Shown: in pieces, positions 8,513 through 59,530 of the stretch
How the letters are laid out: each line of letters opens with the position of its first letter
How positions within the stretch are numbered: position 1 is the stretch's first letter
Assembly: GCA_041660165.1 (NCBI GenBank)
Contig: JBAZWW010000002.1
Location: forward strand, 43,290-107,289
Reading direction: 5' to 3'
Length of the DNA: 64,000 nt
From: Patescibacteria group bacterium
Lineage (GTDB): Bacteria > Patescibacteriota > Patescibacteriia > UBA9934
The notes under the pieces: model-generated
Told to the model about the DNA's origin: nothing
The model's database searches: none
What the model saw: only the letters and a program-made list of their open reading frames with translations
Program-made: the position numbers and the translations under genes

Positions 8513-9058
8513 ATGATCTCATTCATTGAAGGCATTTTGGCAGACCACGAAGCGGATGGCGTGGTGGTTAACGTCAACGGCGTTGGCTATAAACTTGCTG
8601 TTCCGCGAGTTACCTCGGAGGTTGGCGACAAGGTGAAATTCTACGTGGCCGAGGTCATTCGAGAAGATCGTTACGATCTCTATGGATTTTCGACAAGAGA
8701 CGAGCGCACGCTTTTTCATATTTTGACGGGTGTTCAAGGCGTTGGTCCAAAAATGGGTGCCAAGATCCTCGCCTCTGCCACGGCCGATGCCCTGCGCAAG
8801 CGCATCCAGCAGAGCGACGTCTCATTTTTCACCAGCATTTCCGGCGTGGGTAAAAAAACGGCGCAGAAAATCATCCTCGATCTTAAGGGTATTATTGTTG
8901 ATGGTGATGCTAAGGGTTCGATGGGCGAAAAATCCGATGAAGTGGTTGAGGCGCTTGAAAGTTTGGGCTATTCCCGTGAGGATATTTCTTCCGTCATGCC
9001 TCATGTAGTTGGTGAGACGGTAGAAAAGAGAGTAAAATCTGCGTTGAAGATGCTATGA
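8513..9058 (+). CDS. ruvA: Holliday junction DNA helicase RuvA
   Basis: MISFIEG start, GVGYKL and GVGPKMGAKIL helix-hairpin-helix motifs, about 180 aa. Confidence 0.85.
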   Translation: MISFIEGILADHEADGVVVNVNGVGYKLAVPRVTSEVGDKVKFYVAEVIREDRYDLYGFSTRDERTLFHILTGVQGVGPKMGAKILASATADALRKRIQQSDVSFFTSISGVGKKTAQKIILDLKGIIVDGDAKGSMGEKSDEVVEALESLGYSREDISSVMPHVVGETVEKRVKSALKML

Positions 9059-10029
9059 CCCCAGCGCAAGCATGGAACGATAAGATCCGACCCTTCCTTC
9101 CGCCCTTTGGCGGATTTTTGCAATCGTATGAGTGGGGCGAATTCCAAGAATCGCTTGGTTTCAAAGTGATTCGGATTTTCGAGGAATCCTCGAAGGGCAC
9201 GGTAGTCGCTCAGGTGATTGAACAACCGCTGAAATTTGGCAAAAAGTACTATTTGATTCCTAAGGGCCCACTTGGCAACGCCTCGCCAAAGACAATGATT
9301 GAGGTCCTCAAGCACAAACTCCCCAAGGCCGCTTTTTTGAAGATCGAACCTACCCAAAAAATAAAAGGTGGCGTCTTGATGCATGAACGGCATCCTCAGA
9401 CCACGGCAATGGTCAGTTTTCGCAAAAGCGGGGTTTCAAACCCCGCCCAGGTCGCGGACGATCTCCTCAATCGCATGAAACCCAAGACCCGCTACAACAT
9501 CAAGCTTGCCGAAAAGAAACATGTCACGATTCGTATTGCCGGTCCTGAGGCTTTTGGCGAGTTCATGGAGCTCATGAAAGACACGGCTAAGCGCGACGGC
9601 TTCTCGCTCCACTTGCCGGACAGGTATCTGAACATGCTCAAGGTATTGAAAGGAGGAGAATGCCGAGCGTTTCTCGCGTTTGCCGACTTTGAGGGCAAGG
9701 CCCTTGCCGTTAATCTCATGATCGACAGTTTTGGTGCCCGAACATATCTGCACGGTGCGTCGAGTAGTGAAAACCGCAATGTCATGGCGCCGTATGCTCT
9801 GCACTGGCATTTGATCAAAGACGCCGTTGAGAAGGGTATGCTGAGTTACGATTTCTGGGGGATCGCCCCCGTTGGCGCTAGCGATGATCATCCCTGGGCT
9901 GGCATTACTCGCTTCAAACTCGGCTTTGGCGCGGACGTAGTCGAAATGCCCGGCACGTTCGATTTACCGATCTCGAGTTTTTGGTACGGCGTTTATAAAT
10001 TGGCGAGAAGAATGAGCGGGCTTAAGTAG
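9055..10029 (+). CDS. FemAB-family peptidoglycan interpeptide-bridge aminoacyltransferase-like protein
   Basis: YNIKLAEK...TIRIA and FLAFADFEGKALAV regions typical of FemX/MurM. The start overlaps the ruvA stop (ATGA). Confidence 0.75.
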   Translation: MTPAQAWNDKIRPFLPPFGGFLQSYEWGEFQESLGFKVIRIFEESSKGTVVAQVIEQPLKFGKKYYLIPKGPLGNASPKTMIEVLKHKLPKAAFLKIEPTQKIKGGVLMHERHPQTTAMVSFRKSGVSNPAQVADDLLNRMKPKTRYNIKLAEKKHVTIRIAGPEAFGEFMELMKDTAKRDGFSLHLPDRYLNMLKVLKGGECRAFLAFADFEGKALAVNLMIDSFGARTYLHGASSSENRNVMAPYALHWHLIKDAVEKGMLSYDFWGIAPVGASDDHPWAGITRFKLGFGADVVEMPGTFDLPISSFWYGVYKLARRMSGLK

Positions 10030-10516: not shown

Positions 10517-11653
10517 ATGCGAATAGGCATTGACGCACGATTTTTTGGTCCGCGGGTGGGGGGAGGCGGTTTAGGCCGTTATGTCTCTGAGTTGGTGAAC
10601 CATTTGCAGGAAATTGATCATGACAATGAGTACGTTATTTTTCTCAAAAAAGAAAATTTTCATGAGTTCGTGGTAACTGGCGGAAATTTTTCAAAAAAGA
10701 TGGTTGATGTGCCGTGGTACTCGCTGGCTGAGCAGACAATCATGCCGAGAGAAATTGCTCTCGCCAAAGTAGATTTCATGCACTATCCGCACTGGAATGT
10801 GCCGGTGTTTTCGCGCGTGCCGTTCATTGTGACGATTCATGATTTGATCTTACTTGAGGATCCAGCGTCCGCGCGTTCAACTACTCGTGGCGCGTTCGTG
10901 CATGGACTCAAACACGTCGGTTTTAGGATCGCGCTTGAGAGAGCCATTCATGGTTCTCGCCACATCATTGCCGTTTCCGAAGCCACCAAACGCTCCATCC
11001 TCAAACACTTTAAGGTGAAGCCGGCCAAGATTACTGTTATTCATAATGGAGTTTCTGAGCCAAAGACGGGGAAGGGCGTCTCACTCCGGGACCTTGGTGT
11101 TGTTCAGCCGTACTTCCTGTACGTGGGCAACATGTATCCGCACAAGAATCTTGATACGCTCGTTGAGGCCTTTATGGCGGTTCACGCTTCGCACCCCGAT
11201 GCTCAGCTGGTGATAGCCGGGAAGTATGATGAGTTCGGTAAGAAATTGTCACAAAAGACCGCCGAGCTCGGCCTGCCAAATGGTGCGGTGCGGTTTCTTA
11301 ACTTGCCCACGGATGAGGAGATCGGTGCGTTATACCGCAACGCCGTCATGCTTGCGTATCCGTCGAGAATCGAGGGTTTTGGCATCCCTCCTGTTGAGGC
11401 CTTGCTCGCCGGAACGCCCGTGATGGCCTCAAACACATCCTCAATGCCCGAGGTCTTGGGCGAGTTTGTGAAATACGTTGATCCTGACGATTCACAGGAC
11501 ATGGCGCGCATCATGGTGGATGCACTCGTCCACCAAGAAAAATGGGCTGGGTTGAAAACGCGCGGAATGGACTGGGCCAAGAGGTACAATTGGACTACCG
11601 CCTCCAGGCAAACGCTGGAAACATATTTGCTTCACGGCCCGCGCCGGAAATAA
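10517..11653 (+). CDS. glycosyltransferase family 4 (GT1 fold)
   Basis: MRIGIDARFF start, and a C-terminal EGFGIPPVEAL motif. Confidence 0.85.
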   Translation: MRIGIDARFFGPRVGGGGLGRYVSELVNHLQEIDHDNEYVIFLKKENFHEFVVTGGNFSKKMVDVPWYSLAEQTIMPREIALAKVDFMHYPHWNVPVFSRVPFIVTIHDLILLEDPASARSTTRGAFVHGLKHVGFRIALERAIHGSRHIIAVSEATKRSILKHFKVKPAKITVIHNGVSEPKTGKGVSLRDLGVVQPYFLYVGNMYPHKNLDTLVEAFMAVHASHPDAQLVIAGKYDEFGKKLSQKTAELGLPNGAVRFLNLPTDEEIGALYRNAVMLAYPSRIEGFGIPPVEALLAGTPVMASNTSSMPEVLGEFVKYVDPDDSQDMARIMVDALVHQEKWAGLKTRGMDWAKRYNWTTASRQTLETYLLHGPRRK

Positions 11654-14080: not shown

Positions 14081-15970
14081 ATGAAGAAGATCAAGCGCAT
14101 CCATCCAATCCGCAAATCGCCAAGGCGGGGTTTAAACCCCGCCCTCCACGCCAACCCCGCCAAGGGCATACAAGAATCGGAAATGGACGAGGGCTTGCGC
14201 GCAATTTATGGCAACAAGCCGGATGATTTGCATGTGATGACGTCTGGAGGTTCGCGTCTTACGTTTTTTTTGACTAGGATTGTGGCGGTACTCGCGGTTG
14301 CAACGGTGCTCGTGCTCGGCGGTTTATATCTTTCAAGCAAGGGTTTGCTCTTTAACCATACGTTTGTTCCGCTCGTACTTGCCGTTGAGGTTCCGCAGAA
14401 GCTCAAGAGCGGGGAAGCCGTGACCATTTCTATTCCGTATGAGAATCCGCAGAGCGTGCCGATCGCTTCACTTGAGATCAATGTAAACCTGCCCGTGGGA
14501 TTCCGCGTCACAAAATCCATTCCAGAGCCAACGGATTCAGCGGAGATGATTTATAAGCTTGGGAGCGTAAACGCCCACGACAAAGGTGTGATTACGATTG
14601 ACGGCCTTTGGTTGACGAGCACTCCGTCAACATCCGGCGTTCAAGCCATTGCCAGCTATAAGCCGGCCAATTTTGATTCTGATTTTTCGCAGATCGCCTC
14701 GGCTAATGTGGAAACTACGGACAGTGTGCTGACAACTAAGATGGAAGGTCCAGACACGGCCGCTCCGGGCGCGCCGATTAGCTACTCGGTGACGGTTACG
14801 AACACGGGAACTACCATCGTCTCCGGTGCGACCCTTGATCTAACTCTCCCCGTTGGCTTTTCTGTCTCAAAGAGCACGCCGGCCTTTGCGCCGGGGGACT
14901 TACCGCGGTGGTTGCTTGGTGATCTGAAACCGGCAGGCGAGGCCAAGGTTTCCGTTCTTGGCGTTTACGCCTCTGATGTGAACGGTTCATCGGGTGTTTC
15001 GGCAGTGATTTCGCTTTCCTCAACCGCCACCGCCAGCCAGCCCGTCCATTTACTGACGCAGGCTGAGACCTCGGTTAGTACAAACGTGAGTGGCGGAAAC
15101 ATTCGCCTGTCGCTCGTGGCGAACGGTTTGACGGGTGATGTCACAGTTGAACCTGGCAAGGATTTACGTCTTGGTTTCAGACTTGAAAACACCGGCACTA
15201 TGCCGATTATTGATGCCGTAGTTTTGCTCGACTTCCAGCCAGATAAGGGCGTGCCGATTGTTTGGGCCAAGGCGTCTCTTGACGGTGGAGTGATGACTAA
15301 GGATGGCATCCTGTTTGATGCAAAAAAAATCGGTATCGTGAACCCGAATGAGAAGAAAACCTTTAACTTGTCATTCCCAATCAAAGCAGAGCTGACCGCT
15401 ACGGACGCGCAGTCCTTTTCAGCCGTGGCCAGGGCTACAACTGCCGGCTCGACCATTCTCTCAACTCCCGTGAATGCCAAGGTAAACGCCACCGTGGCCT
15501 TTGCCGGCACAGCTCACTATTATTCTACTGACGGCGCAGCCATTGGCACGGGTCCCATGCCCCCGCAGGTTGGCCAGGCTACTTCTTATGAGGTCATGTG
15601 GACCGTCACGCATGGTTTGCACGCGCTTGAAAATCTTGCCGTCACCGCCGTTCTCCCCACGGGCGTCACTTTCTCTGCTCAGCAAGCTGCGGACGCTGGC
15701 GCGGTGACTTTTGACGAGGCCACCCGCACCGTTCACTGGGACGTGTCTGCTATCACTGCTGGCGCCTCCGCCCTTCACGCCAAATTCTACGTCACCGCCA
15801 CGCCTGAAGCCTCAGACGCCGGCAAACTCATGAAACTCCTTGGTAGTAGCTCTCTTCGAGTAACTGACTCTGACACTCAAGCGCGGATTGACAGAGATCT
15901 TGATCCCATGACGACTGAGCTTCCACTCGACACCTTTGCCGTGGGAAAGGGGATAGTCGTAGCGCCGTAG
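14081..15970 (+). CDS. cell-surface protein with DUF11-like repeats
   Basis: N-terminal TM, repeated xISYSVTVTNTGTTIVSGATLDLTLPVGF-type beta-sandwich repeats. Starts 2 nt after the upstream stop. Confidence 0.6.
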   Translation: MKKIKRIHPIRKSPRRGLNPALHANPAKGIQESEMDEGLRAIYGNKPDDLHVMTSGGSRLTFFLTRIVAVLAVATVLVLGGLYLSSKGLLFNHTFVPLVLAVEVPQKLKSGEAVTISIPYENPQSVPIASLEINVNLPVGFRVTKSIPEPTDSAEMIYKLGSVNAHDKGVITIDGLWLTSTPSTSGVQAIASYKPANFDSDFSQIASANVETTDSVLTTKMEGPDTAAPGAPISYSVTVTNTGTTIVSGATLDLTLPVGFSVSKSTPAFAPGDLPRWLLGDLKPAGEAKVSVLGVYASDVNGSSGVSAVISLSSTATASQPVHLLTQAETSVSTNVSGGNIRLSLVANGLTGDVTVEPGKDLRLGFRLENTGTMPIIDAVVLLDFQPDKGVPIVWAKASLDGGVMTKDGILFDAKKIGIVNPNEKKTFNLSFPIKAELTATDAQSFSAVARATTAGSTILSTPVNAKVNATVAFAGTAHYYSTDGAAIGTGPMPPQVGQATSYEVMWTVTHGLHALENLAVTAVLPTGVTFSAQQAADAGAVTFDEATRTVHWDVSAITAGASALHAKFYVTATPEASDAGKLMKLLGSSSLRVTDSDTQARIDRDLDPMTTELPLDTFAVGKGIVVAP

Positions 15971-15982
15971 GCCGTGTATCCC

Positions 15983-16006
15983 ATCCTGAGCGACAGCGAA
16001 GGATCT
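15983..16006 (+). repeat. palindromic repeat family copy (CATCCTGAGCGACAGCGAAGGATC)
   Basis: Same core, 13 nt after the surface-protein stop. Confidence 0.7.
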
Positions 16007-16049
16007 AGAGATGGTAGGTATTTTAGATATTGTGTAGGATAAATGTCAT

Positions 16050-23002: not shown

Positions 23003-23557
23003 ACCGCCCTTGCGGACGGTGTTTTGTGCGTGGGAAACCTATAAGCCGAATTCTGTCGGTTGGATCAGCGCGTTCGGTTTGATCCAGCCGTGACGACCAT
23101 CTCTCTAGCCCCATGATTGCTCATGGGATCGTGCGAGCTACCTAATTTGCTCTTGCACCAAGGCGGGTTTGCCGCACCCGTATGTCGCCATACTGGTGAG
23201 ACGAGTAGTCATTGCTGACACCTCGTCACTTTTCACTGTACTCCACCCGTCACTCACCGAAGTGAGGGGTGTGGGTGGGTAGCATAGTCTCTGTTGCTTC
23301 CTGTTTCATCTTTCGACGAACAGTGAACTGAGAAATTCTTGCGTTTTTCTCAGACTTTCCCTGGGCTTCCTCACGCCTGTGGGGGACAGCGCGAACGCCG
23401 GTATCCAGTCCCTCACCTGCGTAACTTCTTCCCGGTTGCCGTTAGCAACGCCTCTTTCCAATGTACATTGCTGTACACGGGGTGTTCGGACTTTCCTCCC
23501 CTAACGTAGTTCGGCTTAGCCGGACGAAGTGGGGCGGTCATCTAGTTTCCCAAGCAC
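23003..23557 (-). ncRNA. rnpB: RNase P RNA (bacterial type A-like)
   Basis: On the minus strand, GGAGGAAAGUCCGAAC (P4 5' strand) lies 60 nt from a predicted P1. ACAGAAUUCGGCUUAUAGG (P4 3' strand) is present. P1 pairs as GUGCUUGGGAAAC / GUUUCCCACGCAC. A 3' GNRA-capped hairpin plus U-run terminator follows. No ORF in the region. Confidence 0.7.
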
Positions 23558-34863: not shown

Positions 34864-34882
34864 ATTTATATCGAGGCGGGGT

Positions 34883-35797
34883 TTAAACCCCGCTTTTGCG
34901 TTTGAGAGATGCGAGCGCTTCCGTGAGTTCTTTGGGGAGAGGGGCCTTCACGGTTTTTGTTTCGCCGTTTGGCAACTCGACAGTGAGCGATCGAGCATGC
35001 AGGAAAAGACGATCAAGCTTGATCGGTTTTATGTCTTTTCTGACGTAGAGAGTATCACCGGCCACGGGATGCCCGATGGCAAAGAAGTGCGCGCGAATTT
35101 GGTGCGTGCGTCCCGTTTCGATTTTTACGTCAAGCAAAGTTCCAACCGTATATCGGCCGATAACCTCGTAATGGGTAATTGCCGATTTGCCTTCTTGGGA
35201 CAGCGGTCTGGCGGCCATGCGAGCGCGAGTAGTTGAGCGAGCGATAGGGAAGTCGATCGTCCCCTGATTCTCTCGTACTGCTCCCATGACAAACACGGTG
35301 TAGTGCTTTTCCGTCAGTCGGCGAGCGAACTGTTGCTTGAGCCACTTGAAAGCTTTATCTGTTTTTGCAGCTACAAGCACTCCGGATGCGTCTTTGTCCA
35401 GGCGGTGCACGATTCCGGACCGGCCCTCAACCGCTCCCGCCTTTTTCATTTTGGGCGAGTGTTTGAGCAGGGAGTCAAGGAGAGCAAGCCCTTCCTGACC
35501 GGTTGCTCGATGCACCAGAACTCCAGACGGCTTATTTACGAAGATGACATCATCATCTTCAAAAAGAATGTCCAGTTTTGGCAAATCTGTCTTGCTGATC
35601 TTCTTTTTTGCCTCTTTGATTACTTCAACATGATCCTCTGGCGTGACCTCAAGATGGGCGGAAACCTTCTTTCCCTTCACGGTTATTAGGCCTTCTTTGA
35701 TGAATTTCTGGACTTGTGAACGGCTAATGCCAAGCGTGGACGCAAGAGCGATATCAAGCCTGGTTGGCGAATCAATTGTGAGAACGGTAGGTTTCAT
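34883..35797 (-). CDS. RluA-family pseudouridine synthase (RluD-like, with S4 domain)
   Basis: HRLDKDASGVLVAAKTD catalytic motif, with an S4-like N-terminus. Confidence 0.85.
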   Translation of the reverse strand: MKPTVLTIDSPTRLDIALASTLGISRSQVQKFIKEGLITVKGKKVSAHLEVTPEDHVEVIKEAKKKISKTDLPKLDILFEDDDVIFVNKPSGVLVHRATGQEGLALLDSLLKHSPKMKKAGAVEGRSGIVHRLDKDASGVLVAAKTDKAFKWLKQQFARRLTEKHYTVFVMGAVRENQGTIDFPIARSTTRARMAARPLSQEGKSAITHYEVIGRYTVGTLLDVKIETGRTHQIRAHFFAIGHPVAGDTLYVRKDIKPIKLDRLFLHARSLTVELPNGETKTVKAPLPKELTEALASLKRKSGV

Positions 35798-35884: not shown

Positions 35885-35961
35885 GGATCCGTAGCTCAGT
35901 TGGTTAGAGCGCCGAGCTTATACCTCGGTGGTCCCTGGTTCGAGCCCAGGCGGATCCACCA
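35885..35961 (+). tRNA. tRNA-Ile (anticodon UAU)
   Basis: GGATCCG acceptor, AGCTCAGTTGGTTAGAGC D-arm, anticodon loop CUUAUAC, GGTTCGAGCCC T-arm, encoded CCA. Confidence 0.8.
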
Positions 35962-40578: not shown

Positions 40579-40660
40579 GTGTAAATTATAGCAGATTTAC
40601 ACAGATTAGTTTGGCACGACAGATTTAACACAGATCGCACATCTGTGTTCATCTGTCCTG

Positions 40661-41803
40661 TTACTTGATCTGTGTCAATACATTCTTCAAATGCCCAATA
40701 ACATGTCGTTCAGCTTCAACAATATCGCTTTCGGAAATATTTAGCCTGGAAGACTCTTTGGTGCCGGATGCTTTGAACGGGGCGCTGAGGGCCAGGGCAT
40801 CAAGAGGTCGTTCGGCAAAAAGCCTGCCGGCTACGTAGCCGTCTTTGTGTTCGTACAGCAAAACTACTACTTTGGCTGTTGGTGTAGTTGAAAGAAGCTC
40901 TGACACAATGTCATCAAGCGCGTCATCTTTAGCAGATGCCTGGGAGAAGTCGCTTCTGGTTAAAACTGACCACACAAGCCCGATGGCTGGTTCAGATTTG
41001 AGACGGGACAAGGCTCGTCCCCACAGCTTTAGTGTTTCGACCGAGCGAGTTCGGTAGAGTTTTTCAACAATCTCTTCGCGGTCAGCGCCCTTAGCGATGA
41101 GTGCGCTGGCGGTTTCGAGGGTTTTCGGCGAAACGTTCGGCGTGCGGAAGCTCTTGGTTTTGGCAATCATGCCGGTCAGAAAAGCGCTGGCGATATCTTT
41201 GTCGATCAAATTTGGATCGAGTTTTTCGAACAGATTAAACAACGTCTCGCCAACGCTCGTAGCCCCAACGTCAACTAGGTTGAATTGTCCAAAGTGTTCA
41301 TTGCCCTGGGTGTGGTCAACGTTGATGATGGGCGTTTCAAAAAAGAAACCGGCATACTTGGTTTGCAGGGCGCCTAGACTCTTGAGGTCGCCCGCCCCAA
41401 GCGTGATCACCAGGTCATACCTGTACGCGGTGGTGGCGATTTTCACGTCATCACGCTCCCAGAATCCGCTTTTGGGCGAAATGTGAATGCGCAATTCGTC
41501 GCCGTTTTTGCTGTAGGACAGCTCATCTACCGCTGCCTTGCCAACATTGAGATGAATGGTGAGCGAGCGCAAGTTTGGCACGTCACCCTTTACCTCTTTG
41601 GTATTCTTCAAAAATGAGAGCGACTCCGGGGCCCGGCCACCGGATGAAATGATCTCCGCTTCTTTGCCGAGTTTCTTCAAGATGGCTGACAACGCAAACG
41701 CGCTCGCAAAATGATCCACATGCCCTAGCTCTGGCAACACGATGACGGGCCGTTCGGCTCTTTTCAACGCGTACAGGATTTGGTCTGGCAGGGTAAGGGA
41801 CAT
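40661..41803 (-). CDS. DHH-family phosphoesterase-like (NrnA-like) with a degenerate DHH motif
   Basis: GHVDHFASAFAL (motif I-like), NVDHTQGN (DHT in place of DHH), and VDVGATSVGE (motif IV). Confidence 0.5.
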   Translation of the reverse strand: MSLTLPDQILYALKRAERPVIVLPELGHVDHFASAFALSAILKKLGKEAEIISSGGRAPESLSFLKNTKEVKGDVPNLRSLTIHLNVGKAAVDELSYSKNGDELRIHISPKSGFWERDDVKIATTAYRYDLVITLGAGDLKSLGALQTKYAGFFFETPIINVDHTQGNEHFGQFNLVDVGATSVGETLFNLFEKLDPNLIDKDIASAFLTGMIAKTKSFRTPNVSPKTLETASALIAKGADREEIVEKLYRTRSVETLKLWGRALSRLKSEPAIGLVWSVLTRSDFSQASAKDDALDDIVSELLSTTPTAKVVVLLYEHKDGYVAGRLFAERPLDALALSAPFKASGTKESSRLNISESDIVEAERHVIGHLKNVLTQIK

Positions 41804-41865
41804 AGAAGATAAGGGGGAACCTTATATTGGGCGGGTGAGACAGTCAAGCTTGCACTGTGTTTTAG

Positions 41866-41990
41866 GCCCTCGGGATGTCGCTGACTCTGCTCGGGCGATT
41901 TCGGTCAGTCGAACTATTTCTGAAAATGCGGTGGATATCGACTTCCCAAAAATCGCTATTCCGAGCTGTCGTCAGCAACATCCCTCGGGC
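41866..41990. repeat. degenerate inverted repeat related to the palindromic family
   Basis: GCCCTCGGGATGTCGCTGAC ... GTCAGCAACATCCCTCGGGC arms carrying the CATCCCGAG-type motif, in a GC-rich intergenic region. Confidence 0.3.
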
Positions 41991-42067
41991 CCGTCTCAAA
42001 TGCAAGGCCCGCCACGGAAGGACCGGGCGGGCAGGACGGGACTGCGGAGAAGGCGCGGGCGGGGTGC

Positions 42068-42397
42068 TTACCGCTTCAGCGTGATTTCTCGGCGTTCGGG
42101 ATTGATGCTGGTGTTTGGCCAGCCGGTGACTTGGTACCGCCTGACCAGCTCGGCTGATACGCGGGGGGTCAGTCGGGTCTTGCCAACGGGCAAGCTGACG
42201 ACAACCACCGTCTTGTGAGGATAATCCCTGGCCATGGCGTCATCGATTTCCGGTTCGCACTTCTTGACGGTTTGCGTTTCATCTGCCGACAACGCGTTCT
42301 CTGCGTTCATGAACATGCGGTCTCCCGGTCTGATGGCGCCTAAAATGTTACGCCCGTCAAAAAGGTTGTCAATGCAAGAAGTTGCCCGCAAATCCAT
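42068..42397 (-). CDS. hypothetical protein
   Basis: 109-aa ORF with no recognisable domain. Confidence 0.35.
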   Translation of the reverse strand: MDLRATSCIDNLFDGRNILGAIRPGDRMFMNAENALSADETQTVKKCEPEIDDAMARDYPHKTVVVVSLPVGKTRLTPRVSAELVRRYQVTGWPNTSINPERREITLKR

Positions 42398-42420
42398 TTT
42401 CCACTATCCTCATGTGAGTT

Positions 42421-45081
42421 ATGCAAGAAATGCCAAAAGCGTACGAGCCTCAGGGAAAAGAAGACGCCCTTTATGAGCTGTGGCTCAAGAGCGAGTACTT
42501 TAACCCCGATAAACTGCCCAATCTCGATCAACGGACCGAGACTTTTTCAATTGTCCTCCCACCCCCGAATGTTACGGGCACGCTCCACATGGGCCATGCG
42601 ACCATGCTCGCTATTGAGGATGCGATGGTGCGTTACGCTCGGTTAAGCGGGAAGCGGACGCTTTGGATTCCGGGAACTGACCATGCCGCGATCGCGACGC
42701 AATCGAAGGTTGAAGGCATGATTTTCAAAGAAGAAAAGAAAACTCGTTATGACCTTGGCCGAGAGGTATTCCTCGATCGCGTTCGCGCGTTCGCGCAGGA
42801 GAGTCACGATACTATCGTTAATCAAGCGAAGAAGATGGGCGCCTCGGTGGATTGGTCACGTGAGGCATATACGCTCGACAAAACCAGAAATAAGGCCGTC
42901 AACGTTGCGTTCAAACAAATGTATGATGACGGTTTGGTTTACCGCGGTTATCGCGTTATCAATTGGGATCCGATTGGTCAGACCACTATTGCTGATGACG
43001 AAATAGTTTACAAAGAAACGACAGCAATGTTGTACACGTTCAAATATTCGAAAGATTTTCCGATTTCAATTTCGACAACTCGACCAGAAACTAAAGTTGG
43101 CGACACAGCAGTGGCGGTACATCCAACAGATAAGCGTTACAAGAAATTTATCGGACAAGAGTTCGCCGTCGAGTTCGCTGGCAGTAACTTGAAGATCAAA
43201 ATTGTCGGCGATGAATCGGTTGATCCAGAATTCGGAACTGGCGCGCTTGGCGTCACTCCAGCGCATAGTTCGATCGACTTTGATATTTCTAAGCGCCATG
43301 AGTTGCCGATGATTCAAGTTATTGGCGAAGATGGCAAGATGATGAAGACGGCGGGGGAGCTGGTAGCTGGCTTGAGTACAAAAAGTGCTCGGGAGAAAGT
43401 TGTGGAATGGTTGCGCGAAAATTCTTTGCTTGAAAGCGAAGAAGAATCAAAACAAAACTTGTCTACAGCCGAGCGAACTGGCGGAATCATTGAGCCTTTG
43501 CCCAAGTTGCAATGGTTCATTGGCGTGAACACAGAATTTGTTCGCGACGGAAAAAGGGTGACGCTGAAGGGACTGATGCAAGAGGCGGTGCGTTCAAAAG
43601 CGATTGACATTCTTCCCGACAGATTCGAAAAGACATATTTCCATTGGATTGATAATCTCCGCGACTGGAATATCAGCCGTCAGATTTGGTTTGGCCACAG
43701 AGTTCCCGTTTGGTATCGCGAGGTCCAGTCCCCGAGCGTAGGCGAGGGGCCTAGAGGTGGGGATTTGGTGGTCGGCGAAAGGCCAGATGGAGATGGTTGG
43801 ACCCAGGACGAGGATACGCTCGACACTTGGTTCTCTTCTGGTCTTTGGACGTTTTCGACGCTCGGTTGGCCCGATAAGACGAAGGACCTCGAGTTCTATC
43901 ACCCAACGAGCGTGCTTGAAACCGGTTACGACATCATCTTCTTCTGGGTAGCGCGCATGATTCTTATGTCTACGTATCTGCTCGGCGAAGTGCCGTTCAA
44001 GACGGTGTACCTTCACGGGCTCGTCCGTGACGAGCAAGGCCGAAAGATGAGTAAGTCGCTCGGCAACATTATCAATCCGCTCGACATGATTGAGAAGTTC
44101 GGAGCCGATGCAACTCGTCTCTCGTTGGTTCTCGGCAACACGCCGGGGAACGATCTGAAGCTGTCCGAGGAGAAGATTGCCGGCTTCCGAAATTTCACGA
44201 ACAAGTTGTGGAATATCTCACGTTTTATCCTTTCAAAATCACAATTTGTACAAATTGTACAAAATCCAATTCCTAAAACTCTCGCCGACAGATGGATCCT
44301 CGGTCGATTCTCTGAAGTAGTCGAAAAAGTAACGAAGCTTCACGAGGCTTACGATCTCTCCCTCGCCGGTGAGATCTTGCGCGAGTTTACATGGAGCGAA
44401 TTCGCCGACTGGTACCTCGAGATCGCGAAAATTGAGGGCGACAAAGATGAAATCCTGCTCTTTATCCTTGAACGCTTGCTCATCCTCTGGCACCCGTTCA
44501 TGCCATTCGTGACCGAAGAGATTTACAAGAATTTTGATAAAGGCCTCATCATGGTGGCCAAGTGGCCGAGCGATGTGAATTATGCGCTCGCCGATGATGA
44601 TAAGAAAACCATGACCAGCCTGCAGGAAATTGTTGGCGCTATCCGCAATGTTCGTTCCGAACGCAAACTCGATACTAAGAAAGAACTTGGCGTGGCCATT
44701 CTCTCTGGCGGAAAGGGGCTGGTGAGCGAGGGGATGATCGAAGGAGTGAAACCGCTGTTTCCGATTATTGAGAAACTCGGTAGAACATTACCGATTAAAA
44801 CTGAAGACCAGGAGGGGACAGTCAAGGTGATCGCTGGCGGATTCACCGTGGCCATTTCGCTTGAAGGCGTCGTTGATGTCGCCAAGGAGCGCGCTCGGTT
44901 AGAAAAAGAACTTGATCAAACAAAGACGTACGTGGCGAGTATGCTTGTGAAGCTGTCCAATAAGGACTTTGTGGCTCGCGCCCCAGAAAATGTTATTGAT
45001 CTTGAGCGTGACCGCCTGGCCCAGGCCGAAAAGAAGGCTGAGGCGCTTGAAGCGGAACTTAAAGCGCTACTTGAGGCATAA
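42421..45081 (+). CDS. valS: valyl-tRNA synthetase
   Basis: PPNVTGTLHMGHA, KMSKSLGN, C-terminal coiled-coil. The region where a Cys knuckle is normally found is instead repeat-derived (see findings). Confidence 0.95.
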   Translation: MQEMPKAYEPQGKEDALYELWLKSEYFNPDKLPNLDQRTETFSIVLPPPNVTGTLHMGHATMLAIEDAMVRYARLSGKRTLWIPGTDHAAIATQSKVEGMIFKEEKKTRYDLGREVFLDRVRAFAQESHDTIVNQAKKMGASVDWSREAYTLDKTRNKAVNVAFKQMYDDGLVYRGYRVINWDPIGQTTIADDEIVYKETTAMLYTFKYSKDFPISISTTRPETKVGDTAVAVHPTDKRYKKFIGQEFAVEFAGSNLKIKIVGDESVDPEFGTGALGVTPAHSSIDFDISKRHELPMIQVIGEDGKMMKTAGELVAGLSTKSAREKVVEWLRENSLLESEEESKQNLSTAERTGGIIEPLPKLQWFIGVNTEFVRDGKRVTLKGLMQEAVRSKAIDILPDRFEKTYFHWIDNLRDWNISRQIWFGHRVPVWYREVQSPSVGEGPRGGDLVVGERPDGDGWTQDEDTLDTWFSSGLWTFSTLGWPDKTKDLEFYHPTSVLETGYDIIFFWVARMILMSTYLLGEVPFKTVYLHGLVRDEQGRKMSKSLGNIINPLDMIEKFGADATRLSLVLGNTPGNDLKLSEEKIAGFRNFTNKLWNISRFILSKSQFVQIVQNPIPKTLADRWILGRFSEVVEKVTKLHEAYDLSLAGEILREFTWSEFADWYLEIAKIEGDKDEILLFILERLLILWHPFMPFVTEEIYKNFDKGLIMVAKWPSDVNYALADDDKKTMTSLQEIVGAIRNVRSERKLDTKKELGVAILSGGKGLVSEGMIEGVKPLFPIIEKLGRTLPIKTEDQEGTVKVIAGGFTVAISLEGVVDVAKERARLEKELDQTKTYVASMLVKLSNKDFVARAPENVIDLERDRLAQAEKKAEALEAELKALLEA
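43728..43767 (+). repeat. palindromic repeat family copy inside the valS CDS
   Basis: GTCCCCGAGCGTAGGCGAGGGGCCTAGAGGTGGGGATTTGG aligns over about 40 nt with the copy at 3420..3460, including the AGAGGTGGG tail. Confidence 0.55.
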
Positions 45082-45152
45082 TACGCTCGCAGACTCCCCC
45101 TTAGCCCCCTCTTGGAAAGAGGGGGAGCGCACCTGATACAAAACGCACCACT

Positions 45153-48048: not shown

Positions 48049-48105
48049 GTGAAGAACAGATAAACACAGATCGAGTAAACACGACAGATTAAACACAGAT
48101 ATTAT

Positions 48106-55829: not shown

Positions 55830-55905
55830 ACCCTGAGGCTAACGCCGAAGGGTCCGACCCTCTCCGCAGTGAGAGCCGGATCCTTCGCTCTCGCTCAGGA
55901 TGGGA
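55830..55905. repeat. palindromic repeat family, composite copy
   Basis: CCTGAGGCTAACGCCGAAGG plus GGGTCCGACCC plus reverse GGATCCTTCGCTCTCGCTCAGGATGG. Homologous to 8426..8486. Confidence 0.65.
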
Positions 55906-56302: not shown

Positions 56303-57247
56303 ATGTACATCGTCACAGCCGGCAAGGCCTTTAATGATATAGACGCTTACGGGTGCGCCATTGCTTACGCCGAGTTATTGCGGTTTGAGGGTAAGGAGGT
56401 GAAGGCCGTATTCATTGGACCGCTTAACCACTCGGTAACCCCTCTCGCGATTGAACAGGGAGGAGAGTATTTGGCGCAGTGTTCGCCGACTGCTGATGAC
56501 CGGGTTGTGTACGTTGATCTTTCTGATGCGAGGCATTTTGCGTTTCCCGACCTCAATGAGTCGCAGATTTTTGAAATTTACGATCACCACTACGGCTTTG
56601 AGGACTATTGGGCTCCGCGTTTGGGCGAGCGGTCTCACATTGAACGTGTTGGTGCCGCTGGGACACTAATTTGGGAAGAATTCGTGAAGCGCGGTTTCTC
56701 GAAGAGTATCTCATCTTCAAGCGCGAATCTTCTCGCGCTCGCCATTTTGCAGAATACGTTAAACTTTACTTCTTCGGAGACCAACGGACGCGATCACCAA
56801 GCGTTCGCCGAACTCGCGCAGTACCTGACGATGGCGAGCGGCTGGCAGAAACGGTACTTTGACGAGTGTTCTAAGGGCGTGCATGAGCATTTTGCAGAAA
56901 CACTCGAAAACGACACGAAGAAAATTGAAAAATATTTTGGTGCTCAAGACTTTATTTTCTCGCAGTTGGAGATAACCGAGGAGCCGATTGCGTTCATCGA
57001 TCAGTATAAGGATGAGATCGATGCTTTTTGGTCGATGTTCCCGAATGGTCGTCATCTCATAAACATTGCTGACATCTCATCGAAGACGTCACTTTTGTAT
57101 TCTGATGATGCTCAATGGTTGTTTGAGGCGCTTCGATCAATATTCCCGGAGGTGACCCGAACCTCGGAGTCGTGGATTGAGATTCCGATTCATCAACGAA
57201 AGCAGATATTGAAATTGTTCAATGCGAATCCGATAGCCCACCTCTAG
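56303..57247 (+). CDS. DHH-family phosphoesterase (NrnA/pyrophosphatase-like)
   Basis: Motif I NDIDAYGCAIA, motif II VDLSD, motif III IYDHHYG, motif IV VGAAGT. Confidence 0.7.
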   Translation: MYIVTAGKAFNDIDAYGCAIAYAELLRFEGKEVKAVFIGPLNHSVTPLAIEQGGEYLAQCSPTADDRVVYVDLSDARHFAFPDLNESQIFEIYDHHYGFEDYWAPRLGERSHIERVGAAGTLIWEEFVKRGFSKSISSSSANLLALAILQNTLNFTSSETNGRDHQAFAELAQYLTMASGWQKRYFDECSKGVHEHFAETLENDTKKIEKYFGAQDFIFSQLEITEEPIAFIDQYKDEIDAFWSMFPNGRHLINIADISSKTSLLYSDDAQWLFEALRSIFPEVTRTSESWIEIPIHQRKQILKLFNANPIAHL

Positions 57248-57270
57248 ATCCTTCGCCTACGCTCAGGATC
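57247..57270 (-). repeat. palindromic repeat family copy (reverse orientation)
   Basis: GATCCTTCGCCTACGCTCAGGATC, immediately after the stop. Confidence 0.7.
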
Positions 57271-57374
57271 TGATGCACATGAATCCGATCCTAGACTTGC
57301 ACGATTTGGTTCTTATGGTATCCTCTCTGCATAAGAACTCGGCCAGTGGCCGGGTTCGTTGCTTAAATAGAGAT

Positions 57375-58646
57375 ATGTCCAGCCCCATTGAACAAGCCAT
57401 AAGACAGATTTGCGAGGAAAAGGGATTGAGCTATGAGTCCGTCATTGAGACGATTGAGTCGGCTCTCTCAGCTGCTTACCGAAAAGATTTTGGCGATAAG
57501 TATCACAACCTTGAGTCTGAGTTTGATCCGGAGACCGGCGGGGTTCGGGTTTTTGACGTGAAGACGGTGGTTGAGGATATTTCGGAAGAGGAACTCGAAG
57601 AAGTCCGCAAGAAGGAGGCTGAAGAATCCGCTGCGCGTGAAGCCCGCCGAGCTTTGGGCGAGTTCATGCCGGTTGAGGTGCAGTCGCCAACTGATGAAGT
57701 CCCGAAATACAACCCAAAGACCAACGTCATGCTGTCTGAGGCGAAGATTTTGAAGGGCGGATCAAAGGTGGGGGATGTGCTCAGAACAGAGCTGCCAATT
57801 CCTGGCGAGTTCGGTCGTATGGCAGCGATGACCGCCAAGCAGGTCATTACGCAGAAATTGCGCGAAGCAGAGCGCGAAATTATCTTTAGCGAGTTTAAGG
57901 GTGTTGAGGGAACGGTTATTACGGGAACTGTGCAGAGACGCGAGGGACGCATTGTTTTGGTTGACATTGGTAGAACCGCCGGCATCTTGAAGCCGGAAGA
58001 CCAGATGTTGAGCGACCGCTACCGTTCGAACGACCGTTTGCAGGTGTATGTTCGCGAGGTCTCGCTCGGCCCGCGCGGTCCGCAGATTTTGCTGTCCCGC
58101 ACGCATGAGGCGCTCGTCAAGCATTTGTTTGAGGTAGAGATTCCAGAAATCGGCGAAGGCACGGTAGAGATCCGCGCCATTGCTCGCGAAGCTGGGGCGA
58201 GAACAAAGATCGCCGTCTCCTCGAAAGATCCTCAAATTGATCCTATTGGAGCATGTATCGGCCAGCGCGGAACCCGCATCCAGACGGTCATTGCGGAACT
58301 TGCCGGCGAAAAAATTGACATTATTGAATGGAATGACAATCCGAAGGAATTCATTGAGCACGCGCTTGCTCCAGCTAAGGTGGTTGGCGTCAACGTGAAT
58401 GAAGAGGAGCGCACCGCTACGGTGCTTGTCATCCCCGAACAGTTGTCACTTGCCATTGGCCGTGGCGGACAAAACGTCCGTTTGGCTGCTCGGCTGACGG
58501 GCTGGAAAGTGAACATTCAGGAAGTGACGCCTGAAGGAGCGCCAATTGTCACTGCAGAACCCATTGAGGAACCCGCCGGCGAGACGCAAGAAAGCGAGGT
58601 TTCCAACCCCGCCCAGGTTACTGACGTGATACCGAGCGCCGAGTAA
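57375..58646 (+). CDS. nusA: transcription termination/antitermination factor NusA
   Basis: N-terminal domain, an S1-like region, two KH domains (IGACIGQRGTRIQ; LAIGRGGQNVRLAARLTGW). Start set at MSSPIEQ. Confidence 0.9.
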   Translation: MSSPIEQAIRQICEEKGLSYESVIETIESALSAAYRKDFGDKYHNLESEFDPETGGVRVFDVKTVVEDISEEELEEVRKKEAEESAAREARRALGEFMPVEVQSPTDEVPKYNPKTNVMLSEAKILKGGSKVGDVLRTELPIPGEFGRMAAMTAKQVITQKLREAEREIIFSEFKGVEGTVITGTVQRREGRIVLVDIGRTAGILKPEDQMLSDRYRSNDRLQVYVREVSLGPRGPQILLSRTHEALVKHLFEVEIPEIGEGTVEIRAIAREAGARTKIAVSSKDPQIDPIGACIGQRGTRIQTVIAELAGEKIDIIEWNDNPKEFIEHALAPAKVVGVNVNEEERTATVLVIPEQLSLAIGRGGQNVRLAARLTGWKVNIQEVTPEGAPIVTAEPIEEPAGETQESEVSNPAQVTDVIPSAE

Positions 58647-58649
58647 CGT

Positions 58650-59456
58650 ATGAACATCATTGGCGATATCCTGACCGCGCTCCTGTATCAGCCGATCTAC
58701 AACATGCTGATCTTTGTATATGGCGTTTTTCCCTGGGGTGGATTAGGCCTTGGCATCATCGTTGTCACGCTCGTGATAAAAGTGCTGACGTTGCCACTCA
58801 CGTATAAGTCAATGAAGGCACAGAAGGAACTTCAGGAAATCCAGCCAAAGATTGAAGCCATTAAAGCAAAGTACAAGGGAGACTCTGCCAAGCAGGAAGT
58901 GATGGCCAAGGAACTCATGGGCATCTACAAGCTCCACAACGTAAACCCATTCGCCTCTTGTTTGCCGACTATTCTCCAGTTAGTTGTGTTTATCTCATTG
59001 TTCAAAGCGCTCACGGCGGGCCTAAAATCAGTTGATCTTGGGCTCCTGTATCCGTTTGTTCATGATCCGGGGTTGTTGAGCCATATGTTTTTGGGCATGG
59101 ACTTGGCCCACGTATCCATTCCTCTCGGTATCCTTTCAGCAGGGATGCAATACTTCCAGGCCAAACAAATGGTAGGAAGCCGTCCGCCAAAAGCGGTGAG
59201 ACAGGGGCCGAACGGCTCGGAAGCTATGGATGAAGACATGACCGCTACCATGAACAAGATGACGCTGACCATGTTGCCGATCATGATGCTGGTCATGGGT
59301 GTTACCACGCTTCCGGGCGGTACCACGCTCTACATCTTTGTGAGCACGCTCATCACGTATCTCATGTATATCGTGTTCCTCCAGCCTCCGGCTCCCTCGG
59401 CGAGTACGCCGGCATCAATTGTTGGCGAGATCGTTTCATCAGAGAAGCGCACTTAG
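58650..59456 (+). CDS. yidC: membrane protein insertase YidC (short form)
   Basis: KSMKAQKELQEIQPKIEAIKAKYK...NPFASCLPTILQLVVFISLFKAL conserved core. Confidence 0.85.
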   Translation: MNIIGDILTALLYQPIYNMLIFVYGVFPWGGLGLGIIVVTLVIKVLTLPLTYKSMKAQKELQEIQPKIEAIKAKYKGDSAKQEVMAKELMGIYKLHNVNPFASCLPTILQLVVFISLFKALTAGLKSVDLGLLYPFVHDPGLLSHMFLGMDLAHVSIPLGILSAGMQYFQAKQMVGSRPPKAVRQGPNGSEAMDEDMTATMNKMTLTMLPIMMLVMGVTTLPGGTTLYIFVSTLITYLMYIVFLQPPAPSASTPASIVGEIVSSEKRT

Positions 59457-59463
59457 CACTTTC

Positions 59464-59530
59464 TCCATCCCGAGCTATGCGAGGGATCCGACCTTCACCG
59501 GTGAGGGTCGGATCCCTCCTGTCGTCGGGG
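59464..59530 (+). repeat. palindromic repeat family, extended degenerate copy
   Basis: CATCCCGAGCTATGCGAGGGATCCGACC ... GGTCGGATCCCTCC ... GGGATGAGG. Confidence 0.6.

Follow-up and report, generated by a model that had tools for sequence, protein, structure and literature searches.

How does a short hairpin repeat, most copies of which lie in the spacers between genes, come to be read in frame within a valyl-tRNA synthetase (ValRS) gene? The question is raised by 64,000 nt of DNA from a Patescibacteria group bacterium (GenBank assembly GCA_041660165.1, contig JBAZWW010000002.1, positions 43,290 to 107,289 of the forward strand), referred to here as the window and numbered from its first nucleotide. 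In this window, valS (42421..45081, +) encodes a product of 886 aa that matches the database protein P0001 at 100%, the database gene call beginning 3 codons later. The product has thousands of ValRS homologues, with PF00133, PF08264 and PF10458, and the gene order valS-tyrS-argS is conserved in relatives. Within valS lies a 36-nt member of a hairpin repeat family which, judged by its orthologues, was inserted in frame and which encodes an additional loop of 12 residues.

The inserted element, as delimited by filled and empty alleles, occupies positions 43726..43761 (+) and consists of 12 codons (CAG TCC CCG AGC GTA GGC GAG GGG CCT AGA GGT GGG) that encode QSPSVGEGPRGG. Its right edge is uncertain by a few nucleotides, since the tail consensus of the family would run through GATTTGG to 43768. 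The peptide and flanks reported in the initial annotation (...PVWYREVQSPSVGEGPRGGDLVVGERPDGDGWTQDEDTLDTWFSS) are correct and fall within the 886-aa open reading frame (ORF). Alignment and pair counts place the hairpin core of this copy at 43728..43751 (+), with an arm GTCCCC, G·A/A·G pairs around GC-GTAG-GC, and an arm GGGGCC. The core is followed at 43753..43761 (+) by a Shine-Dalgarno-like tail, AGAGGTGGG, which encodes RGG and has an in-frame TTG (43765-43767) 3 nt further on.

Several comparisons connect this segment to copies elsewhere. The 9-mer tail is shared exactly by the valS copy, the copy at 3445 and the copy at 57237(-), its 3 occurrences in the window comparing with 0.40 expected, while the core GAGCGYAGGCGARGG occurs 5 times against an expectation of 0.58. 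The initial annotation had matched the 41-mer at valS 43728 with the intergenic 41-mer at 3420; these agree at 30 of 41 positions, and closer partners exist. Over valS 43731-43761, only 4 of 31 positions are mismatched with the intergenic copy at 57237-57267(-), and an intergenic copy on a 1.8-kb metagenome contig (L089), situated 17 nt upstream of a gene start, is identical to valS 43730-43761 at 32 of 32 nt. In Markov shuffles of the window, none of 30 gave a site with 8 or fewer mismatches to the valS copy, which bears out the earlier suspicion that the resemblance exceeds chance. On these alignments, the valS segment is a genuine member of the repeat family, far beyond chance.

Comparison with orthologues indicates that the segment is not ancestral to ValRS. 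In a ValRS scan of genome contigs no relative exceeded 61% identity, and close orthologues were fetched by exact-protein look-up. In most of the 120 closest ValRS proteins, the loop from PVWY to DEDTLDTWFSS is 18 aa long ([RK]GEE[IL]xVGExPxGxGWxQ), versus 30 aa in the window, and the extra 12 aa are found only in the window protein (P0001) and in P0002, which is 89% identical. The initial annotation had held that the same peptide in ValRS orthologues from unrelated bacteria would speak for ancestral sequence; it was looked for among the 120 closest proteins, and the outcome was negative. In nucleotides, the window has TGG TAT CGC GAG GTC, then the 12 element codons, then GAT TTG GTG GTC GGC GAA, whereas the empty allele of the syntenic contig L082 (P0005, 78% identity) reads TGG TAC AAG GGC GAG GAG TTA GCC GTT GGC GAA, a net gain of 36 nt in the window. 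A related copy in L083 (P0006, 77%) reads CTG ACC CTG AGC GAA GGC GAA GGG TCT AGA GGT GGT and shares its right junction with the copies in the window and in L081 (...AGA GGT GGK, then GAT); a (GAAAGTC)n repeat lies ahead of it. Two independent assemblies, the window contig (ENA) and the JGI contig L081, contain the filled allele in surroundings that have diverged by 19% at the nucleotide level, and the allele is therefore not an assembly artefact. On the evidence of these alleles, the segment was inserted into valS recently and in frame. As a separate observation, the (GAAAGTC/GAAAGTG)n repeat of L083 has three copies in valS (SKVESGKSK) and one in the spacer behind argS (coordinates 3494-3530, 4048-4085, 2481-2498 and 7882-7906), and represents a further repeat family decorating ValRS.

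The initial annotation had also pointed to a second aminoacyl-tRNA synthetase gene with an in-frame copy. This gene is ileS (isoleucyl-tRNA synthetase, IleRS; 455..3421, +, 988 aa), for which filled, empty and nested alleles are present among relatives of 84-91% identity. The hairpin part of the ileS copy, CAGTCCCTGAGCGTCAGCGAAGGGCCT, lies at 2771..2797 (+) and encodes QSLSVSEGP, in the same reading frame as QSPSVGEGP of the valS copy, the two copies being identical at 26 of 30 nt (87%). The tail part, GGAGGTGGCGGATTGGCT, lies at 2855..2872 (+) and is split from the hairpin by a nested 57-nt insert (2798..2854, +) that folds strongly on itself into two hairpins (-25.6 kcal/mol), is absent from the 91% relative (L086) and has no second copy in the window. 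The linker between PF[ML]PFLAEMIW and SVHLxxWP is 7 aa long (QELGKED) in an 87% relative, which represents the empty state, and is filled in the 91% relative (QDLHPAQSSGESSQSLSVSEGPRGGGLAQDGA) and in an 84% relative (QDLMDGRSQSPSEGEGPRGGLLDGD). The DNA of the latter reads ...CAG TCC CCG AGC GAA GGC GAG GGG CCT AGA GGT GGG CTA TTG GAT... and carries the complete tail AGAGGTGGGCTATTGGA, the 17-nt tail of the intergenic copies of the window. The presence of the tail in filled ileS copies, together with the absence of RGG from the empty IleRS allele, shows that the tail belongs to the element. Filled ileS alleles occur in three assemblies (L086, L090 and the window).

The family to which these copies belong is defined by its architecture. 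At least 12 copies are present in the window, two in coding sequences (ileS 2771-2797 and valS) and 10 in short spacers (3419, 6296, 6378(-), 7295, 8425, 8479(-), 15981, 55878(-), 57246(-) and 59465). The element measures about 36-46 nt, or 36-54 nt by net insert (36 nt in valS and 54 nt in the ileS of contig L088), and its layout runs from 5-7 bp of outer stem through tandem G·A/A·G and an inner stem of 2 bp to a loop of 3-4 nt, the apparent 12-nt loop being structured. A definition by architecture only, in which the arm sequence is unconstrained, recovers 9 perfect hairpins in the window versus 0.075 in shuffles. When 14 copies are aligned, 90% of cells are paired, compared to 35-52% when the partner is slid; both sides change in 5 of 8 pairs, and the covariation score of these copies was reached by none of 500 shuffles. 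The arms covary (ATCCT/AGGAT, ATCCC/GGGAT, ATCTC/GAGAT and ACCCT/AGGGT, with GC/GC or AC/GT as inner stem) while loop and tail are conserved across the family. One sub-family, which includes the valS copy, has the Shine-Dalgarno-like tail YAGAGGTGG(N3)ATTGG. The canonical fold is present in intergenic copies. The RNA fold of the valS copy is no better than that of shuffles (z = -1.2), an alternative pairing being preferred, and so lends no support to a specially stable mRNA structure.

At the gathering threshold, Rfam 15 matched only tRNAs and RNase P in the window and left the hairpin unmatched, and at E values up to 5 over 3300-8600, which contains six copies, only chance-level matches were returned. 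The copies run into YAGAGGTGG or CCG/CTGATTGG and never into a T-run, and the family hairpins are therefore not intrinsic terminators. The same architecture is sporadic in other phyla, with 22 matches in 1.42 Mb of fetched loci (~13x chance). A scan of metagenomes for the hairpin together with the tail found 3 loci only, which implies that this sub-family is lineage-restricted.

The spacer copies are closely associated with gene ends, where several of them supply stop codons. The copy at 3419..3461 (+), comprising the hairpin and the full tail, overlaps the end of ileS and supplies its TGA (GGT TTT TGA-TCC...); it is missing in three relatives, in which ileS ends with GGTTTCTAG (GGT TTC TAG). 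The copy closest to that of valS within the window lies at 57229..57271 (-), where 57246-57271(-) takes up all 25 nt that separate a DHH-like gene from nusA, and the complement of its tail gives the TAG stop of the DHH-like gene. An inverted doublet of family hairpins at 8425..8504 (8425-8449 on +, 8479-8504 on -) separates a hypothetical gene from ruvA, and the TGA within CCTGAGC stops the upstream gene; in relatives the two genes overlap (ATGA). Composite palindromes are found at 6296..6403, with two family hairpins (6296-6320 on + and 6378-6403 on -), and at 7295..7375 (+), with one (7295-7319). The latter lies at a junction of two hypothetical genes that has a ~100-nt composite palindrome in the window, versus a 4-nt spacer in L088. 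The other intergenic copies lie at 15981..16015 (+), downstream of a DUF11 gene and with a degenerate tail AGAGATGGT; at 55878..55903 (-), with the tetraloop GAGA; and at 59465..59489 (+), downstream of yidC, where the hairpin heads a longer palindrome. The initial annotation had suggested that these elements are, or were, mobile. This claim is supported by insertion polymorphism at five window sites (valS, ileS, the ileS stop and two intergenic junctions), and by a hairpin density in the window (9 in 64 kb) that is about nine-fold above that of the other loci (22 in 1.42 Mb).

Of the three forward frames of the element one is stop-free (…LSVGEGPRGG…), and of its three reverse frames two are. 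Every copy in valS and ileS is read in the forward open frame. This use is not absolute, as the ValRS of contig L007 holds, at another site, an inverted doublet that includes a reverse-oriented copy. The doublet is in frame (HSEARRGEES...GSFADAQD; L007 ~3550-3640, valS residues ~625-655) at the start of the anticodon-binding region, belongs to more distant Patescibacteria, and is missing from five other ValRS proteins compared. A hairpin with tail is also carried in frame by a hypothetical gene upstream of ruvA in L087 (13809-13850; LILSVGEGFRRGLVD), a contig whose ileS site is empty. Its loop is variable in orthologues. As a demonstrated insertion this L087 copy was discounted, no clean empty allele being present among the orthologues compared.

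The position of the valS copy within the protein was considered with an AlphaFold model of the window ValRS built with 50 orthologues (mean pLDDT 82, the confidence score of the model). Residues 435-447 (VQSPSVGEGPRGG) have a pLDDT below 50 and are flanked by strands at 430-433 and 449-451. In this model, the insert is at the tip of a beta-hairpin and is predicted to be disordered. The initial annotation had remarked that many ValRS proteins carry a Cys-rich knuckle here. It was right about the position: WYCEDCQ...SCEACGS of Thermus thermophilus ValRS (PDB 1GAX) aligns on the same stretch, and the four-Cys knuckle is kept in 8 of the 120 closest orthologues. A causal link with the repeat did not hold up. 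The window loop (PxWY to DEDxxDTWFSS) lacks Cys and with it the CxxC...CxxC knuckle, and the knuckle is missing throughout the sub-clade, with or without the repeat. Since close relatives that are free of the repeat are also without a knuckle, the repeat did not replace it; the knuckle was lost in the clade before the insertion.

The same loop has received additional sequence in other lineages. In a tree built without the loop, at least 12 lineages hold unrelated extra peptides at this position, and by this count the ValRS loop is an evident insertion hot spot. Some of the loop inserts match repeats elsewhere on their own contigs (L001 and L083). In L001 (Uhrbacteria RIFOXYB12_FULL_58_10; 11297-11386 and 9963-9993), the loop peptide KVGKVGEVREVGE derives from a tandem AGGTTGGGG-like repeat, which recurs in the spacer immediately upstream of valS, there in reverse orientation (E = 6e-6).

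Among known systems, the closest comparisons are with the Rickettsia palindromic elements (RPEs), whose in-frame copies are documented (Ogata et al. 2000; reviewed in PMC10969869). As in RPEs, the window family is palindromic, has intergenic as well as in-frame copies in unrelated, often essential genes, and adds a translated peptide at a fold-compatible position in a host with a small reduced genome. The valS and ileS copies have empty alleles in relatives, and the compatibility of the valS site with the fold is predicted. RPEs differ in being ~100-150 bp long and confined to Rickettsia, whereas the present element measures 36 nt in valS and 54 nt in the ileS of L088, has a tandem-G·A hairpin and a Shine-Dalgarno-like tail, and occurs in Patescibacteria, by which description it is set apart.

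A second comparison is with the REP (repetitive extragenic palindromic) sequences and their REPIN doublets (PMC3733652, PMC3116915), which are likewise short (20-40 bp) hairpins located mostly just downstream of genes, with some inverted doublets (as at 8425/8504), species-specific copy number, occasional in-frame copies and recurrence at the same site across species; intragenic REPs are documented, including at the same recB site in two Xanthomonas species (PMC3733652). In keeping with a REP-like distribution, 10 of the 12 copies in 64 kb are in short spacers at gene ends, several of them over stop codons. Inverted doublets, a REPIN feature, are found at 8425/8504, at 6296/6403 and in the L007 valS, and most copies, that of valS included, are singletons. 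The window family differs from REPs in lacking the end tag: no consistent GTAG/CGTC is present in the 12 nt flanking either arm, and GTAG is the tetraloop of one sub-family only. It also has a conserved structured loop rather than a long stem, as well as a conserved 3' tail resembling a ribosome-binding site (RBS), and no RAYT (REP-associated tyrosine transposase) was found among the ORFs scanned in the 64 kb.

The bacterial MITEs, or miniature inverted-repeat transposable elements (ERIC, RU-1/2/3, Correia; PMC2759123, PMC10969869), are similar in being non-autonomous, in having short inverted ends, in forming in-frame fusions and in supplying stops or regulatory signals. MITEs are typically 50-500 bp long, with clear terminal inverted repeats and target-site duplications from a parent insertion sequence (IS), in contrast to the single small hairpin with arms of 5-7 bp seen here. 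Small mobile hairpins that invade the genes of a compact genome are also represented by the GC-cluster, double-hairpin and 'byp' elements of fungal mitochondria, of which the byp elements are skipped by translational bypassing. The window element differs from byp elements in that its frame and multiple-of-three length indicate plain translation, and the hosts and sequences are unrelated. The literature searched contained no report of in-frame palindromic repeats for Patescibacteria or the Candidate Phyla Radiation (CPR). We conclude that the element is an RPE/REP-like hairpin in a new phylum, with a previously uncurated architecture.

Taken together, the reading that we consider very probable is that a small non-autonomous REP/MITE-like hairpin inserted in valS and has been tolerated as a translated passenger loop. 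Copies of the family would have spread through this Patescibacteria (Uhrbacteria-like) genome, mostly into very short intergenic spacers, where they often overlap or supply stop codons. Insertions in coding sequences would persist only if their length is a multiple of three, their frame is stop-free and they fall in a surface loop whose structure permits them. The valS element would simply be translated into a disordered Gly/Ser/Pro-rich loop of 12 residues, and we infer that this peptide is carried as a neutral passenger. The spread may have occurred by transposition-like copying of the DNA hairpin through a trans-acting enzyme encoded elsewhere, on the model of REP/RAYT and IS200/IS605-type single-strand transposition.

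It should be noted that a number of observations weigh against this reading. No transposase, RAYT (Y1/HUH) or IS was found by Pfam in the 50 ORFs scanned in the window, the 64 kb of which represent a quarter of the 257-kb contig. No consistent target-site duplication is present, and none is evident at valS or at the intergenic copies; the L088 ileS copy is flanked by an 8-nt direct repeat, TGGATGGT (46 + 8 = 54 nt net gain), which overlaps the tail consensus. At synonymous sites, the element is also better conserved than its host genes. Between the window and L081, 42 element nt of valS differ at 2 positions, which form one compensatory pair (CCCT…AGGG vs CCCC…GGGG), and 13 of 14 third codon positions are the same within the element, versus 56% in the remainder of valS. 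In ileS, the window and L086 are identical at 42 of 42 nt and at 14 of 14 third positions, versus 58%. A binomial test of synonymous conservation gives P = 0.003 for valS and 0.0005 for ileS; a sliding-window control, in which 6.2% of the 14-codon windows in valS and 2.9% of those in ileS are as conserved (~0.06 and 0.03), weakens this result, making the conservation suggestive and not decisive. Such synonymous conservation is not expected of a purely neutral passenger and is explained only in part. Finally, a bootstrapped tree places the empty P0005 (96%) between filled lineages with the same right junction, a pattern which implies either repeated insertion at one junction or precise loss. 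Along with the in-frame TTG that comes 5 nt after GAGGTGG both in valS (43765) and in ileS (2867), the synonymous conservation and the tree pattern keep alive the rival explanations in which the element is functional or is targeted to its sites.

One such explanation, which appears unlikely, is that the hairpin with its Shine-Dalgarno-like tail is, within coding sequences, a selected functional nucleic-acid element that may act in protein binding or processing, in pausing or in internal initiation. It would account for synonymous positions that exceed host gene conservation in two independent gene pairs, for an ileS copy that has stayed the same in the window and L086 despite the nested insert, for the compensatory C-G/T-A pair as the sole difference between the valS copies of the window and L081, for a loop and tail that are conserved while the arms covary across the family, and for the in-frame TTG behind the tail in both genes. 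Under the sliding-window control, however, the conservation is no more than moderately unusual, both sites are empty in close relatives, and the valS RNA fold and the Rfam searches offer nothing in its favor. Moreover, the intergenic L089 copy has the identical arm variant, and the seemingly compensatory change may reflect different source copies or conversion. Site specificity, for example through homology between tail and target, by which the element repeatedly hits the same valS and ileS junctions or excises precisely, seems to us quite improbable. This would fit the shared right junction of the window, L081 and L083 copies on either side of the empty P0005, as well as the filled, empty, filled, empty succession down the identity ladder of ileS, with different element variants. 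On the other hand, across many lineages unrelated inserts pile up in the same loops, for which filtering by selection suffices and no targeting is needed; the left junctions differ among ileS copies, a shared target motif is absent from the flanks of the intergenic copies, and bootstrap support for P0006 as outgroup is only 70%. A wider proposal, in which copies within coding sequences are selected as an RNA or DNA signal (pause, TTG internal start or factor site) and/or arise by repeated targeting, with hairpin repeats as a major source of CPR protein insertions, has some, albeit low, probability.

Two further explanations carry practically no weight. Exchange between the paralogous ileS and valS, or an artefact of metagenome assembly, would draw on the fact that repeats can give chimeric joins and on the ileS and valS copies being closer to each other than to most intergenic copies. 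Against this, filled valS was recovered from two sources and filled ileS from three assemblies, with frame and length intact, and the ileS and valS sites are non-homologous, with dissimilar flanks. Equally negligible is a chance resemblance or an ancestral ValRS sequence. The 30-aa loop of the window does resemble the length found in E. coli and Thermus ValRS, and length alone is no sign of insertion. Nevertheless, shuffles never approached the match, the identity to the intergenic L089 copy is complete, the peptide is missing in 118 of the 120 closest orthologues, the clade baseline is 18 aa, and an empty site is present in the DNA of a relative. The orthologue, empty-site and shuffle comparisons thus refute this reading, and the tolerated insertion of a mobile hairpin remains the explanation that we favor.

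The window contains further repeats. A second hairpin family, GCGGGGTTTMAAACCCCGC followed by CCAGGT..., is found at 9425-9460 (in a femAB-like coding sequence), 58591-58626 (at the 3' end of nusA), 34874-34893 and 14121-14156. Its two coding copies are in frame and use the same frame, encoding KSGVSNPAQVA in the femAB-like gene and ESEVSNPAQVTD in NusA, from which it follows that the phenomenon is general in this genome. The second-family residues are missing from the FemAB orthologue of L088, and at this position that of L087 bears a 14-aa insert of a different kind. TTTT follows the copy at 34874, which is terminator-like. In the spacer between valS and tyrS (45092-45133), a G+C-rich hairpin, CCCCCTCTTGGAAAGAGGGGG, and its flanks are 97.6% identical over 42 nt to L091 5102-5143, where the counterpart adjoins a hairpin of the first family; this is a further repeat family common to contigs. 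Downstream of two convergent gene ends, ACAGAT/ACACAGAT units make up a 44-nt direct repeat (77% identity; 40592-40635 and 48057-48100). Upstream of valS, ~600 nt (41803-42421) hold no convincing gene, the only ORFs being Arg-rich, in a genome that is tightly packed elsewhere, the equivalent region of relatives containing Ham1-like and DUF5678 genes or a shorter spacer.

Other features of the window deviate in length or type. The class A RNase P RNA (23026-23553, -) is 528 nt long, versus a 367-position model, with expansions in the P3 loop, after P4, at P9/P10 and at P12, and no copy of the hairpin family was found in this enlarged RNA. A tRNA-Ile with anticodon UAU was predicted by ARAGORN at 35885-35961 (+); UAU is an unusual bacterial way to read AUA, for which most bacteria use lysidine-modified CAU. 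In nusA (57273-58646), the Pfam NusA_N match extends over 162 residues, versus a 119-position profile, and in yidC (58650-59456), the YidC match extends over 209 residues, versus 163. These over-length matches suggest further lineage-specific insertions, which might be repeat-derived.

In-frame palindromic repeats in essential genes are textbook knowledge in Rickettsia, and catalogues of them exist for some REP families. Here, a single 64-kb window has two hairpin families in frame in four housekeeping genes (valS, ileS, the femAB-like gene and nusA). Repeat-derived inserts that have arisen independently in the same ValRS loop in many Patescibacteria lineages provide a testable origin for the lineage-specific insertions of CPR proteins, and we would caution that such segments are not to be read as functional motifs or as zinc knuckles lost or gained. 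Gene punctuation in these very compact genomes may in addition be affected by a conserved, covarying hairpin with an RBS-like tail that is a frequent source of stop codons in 25-100-nt spacers.

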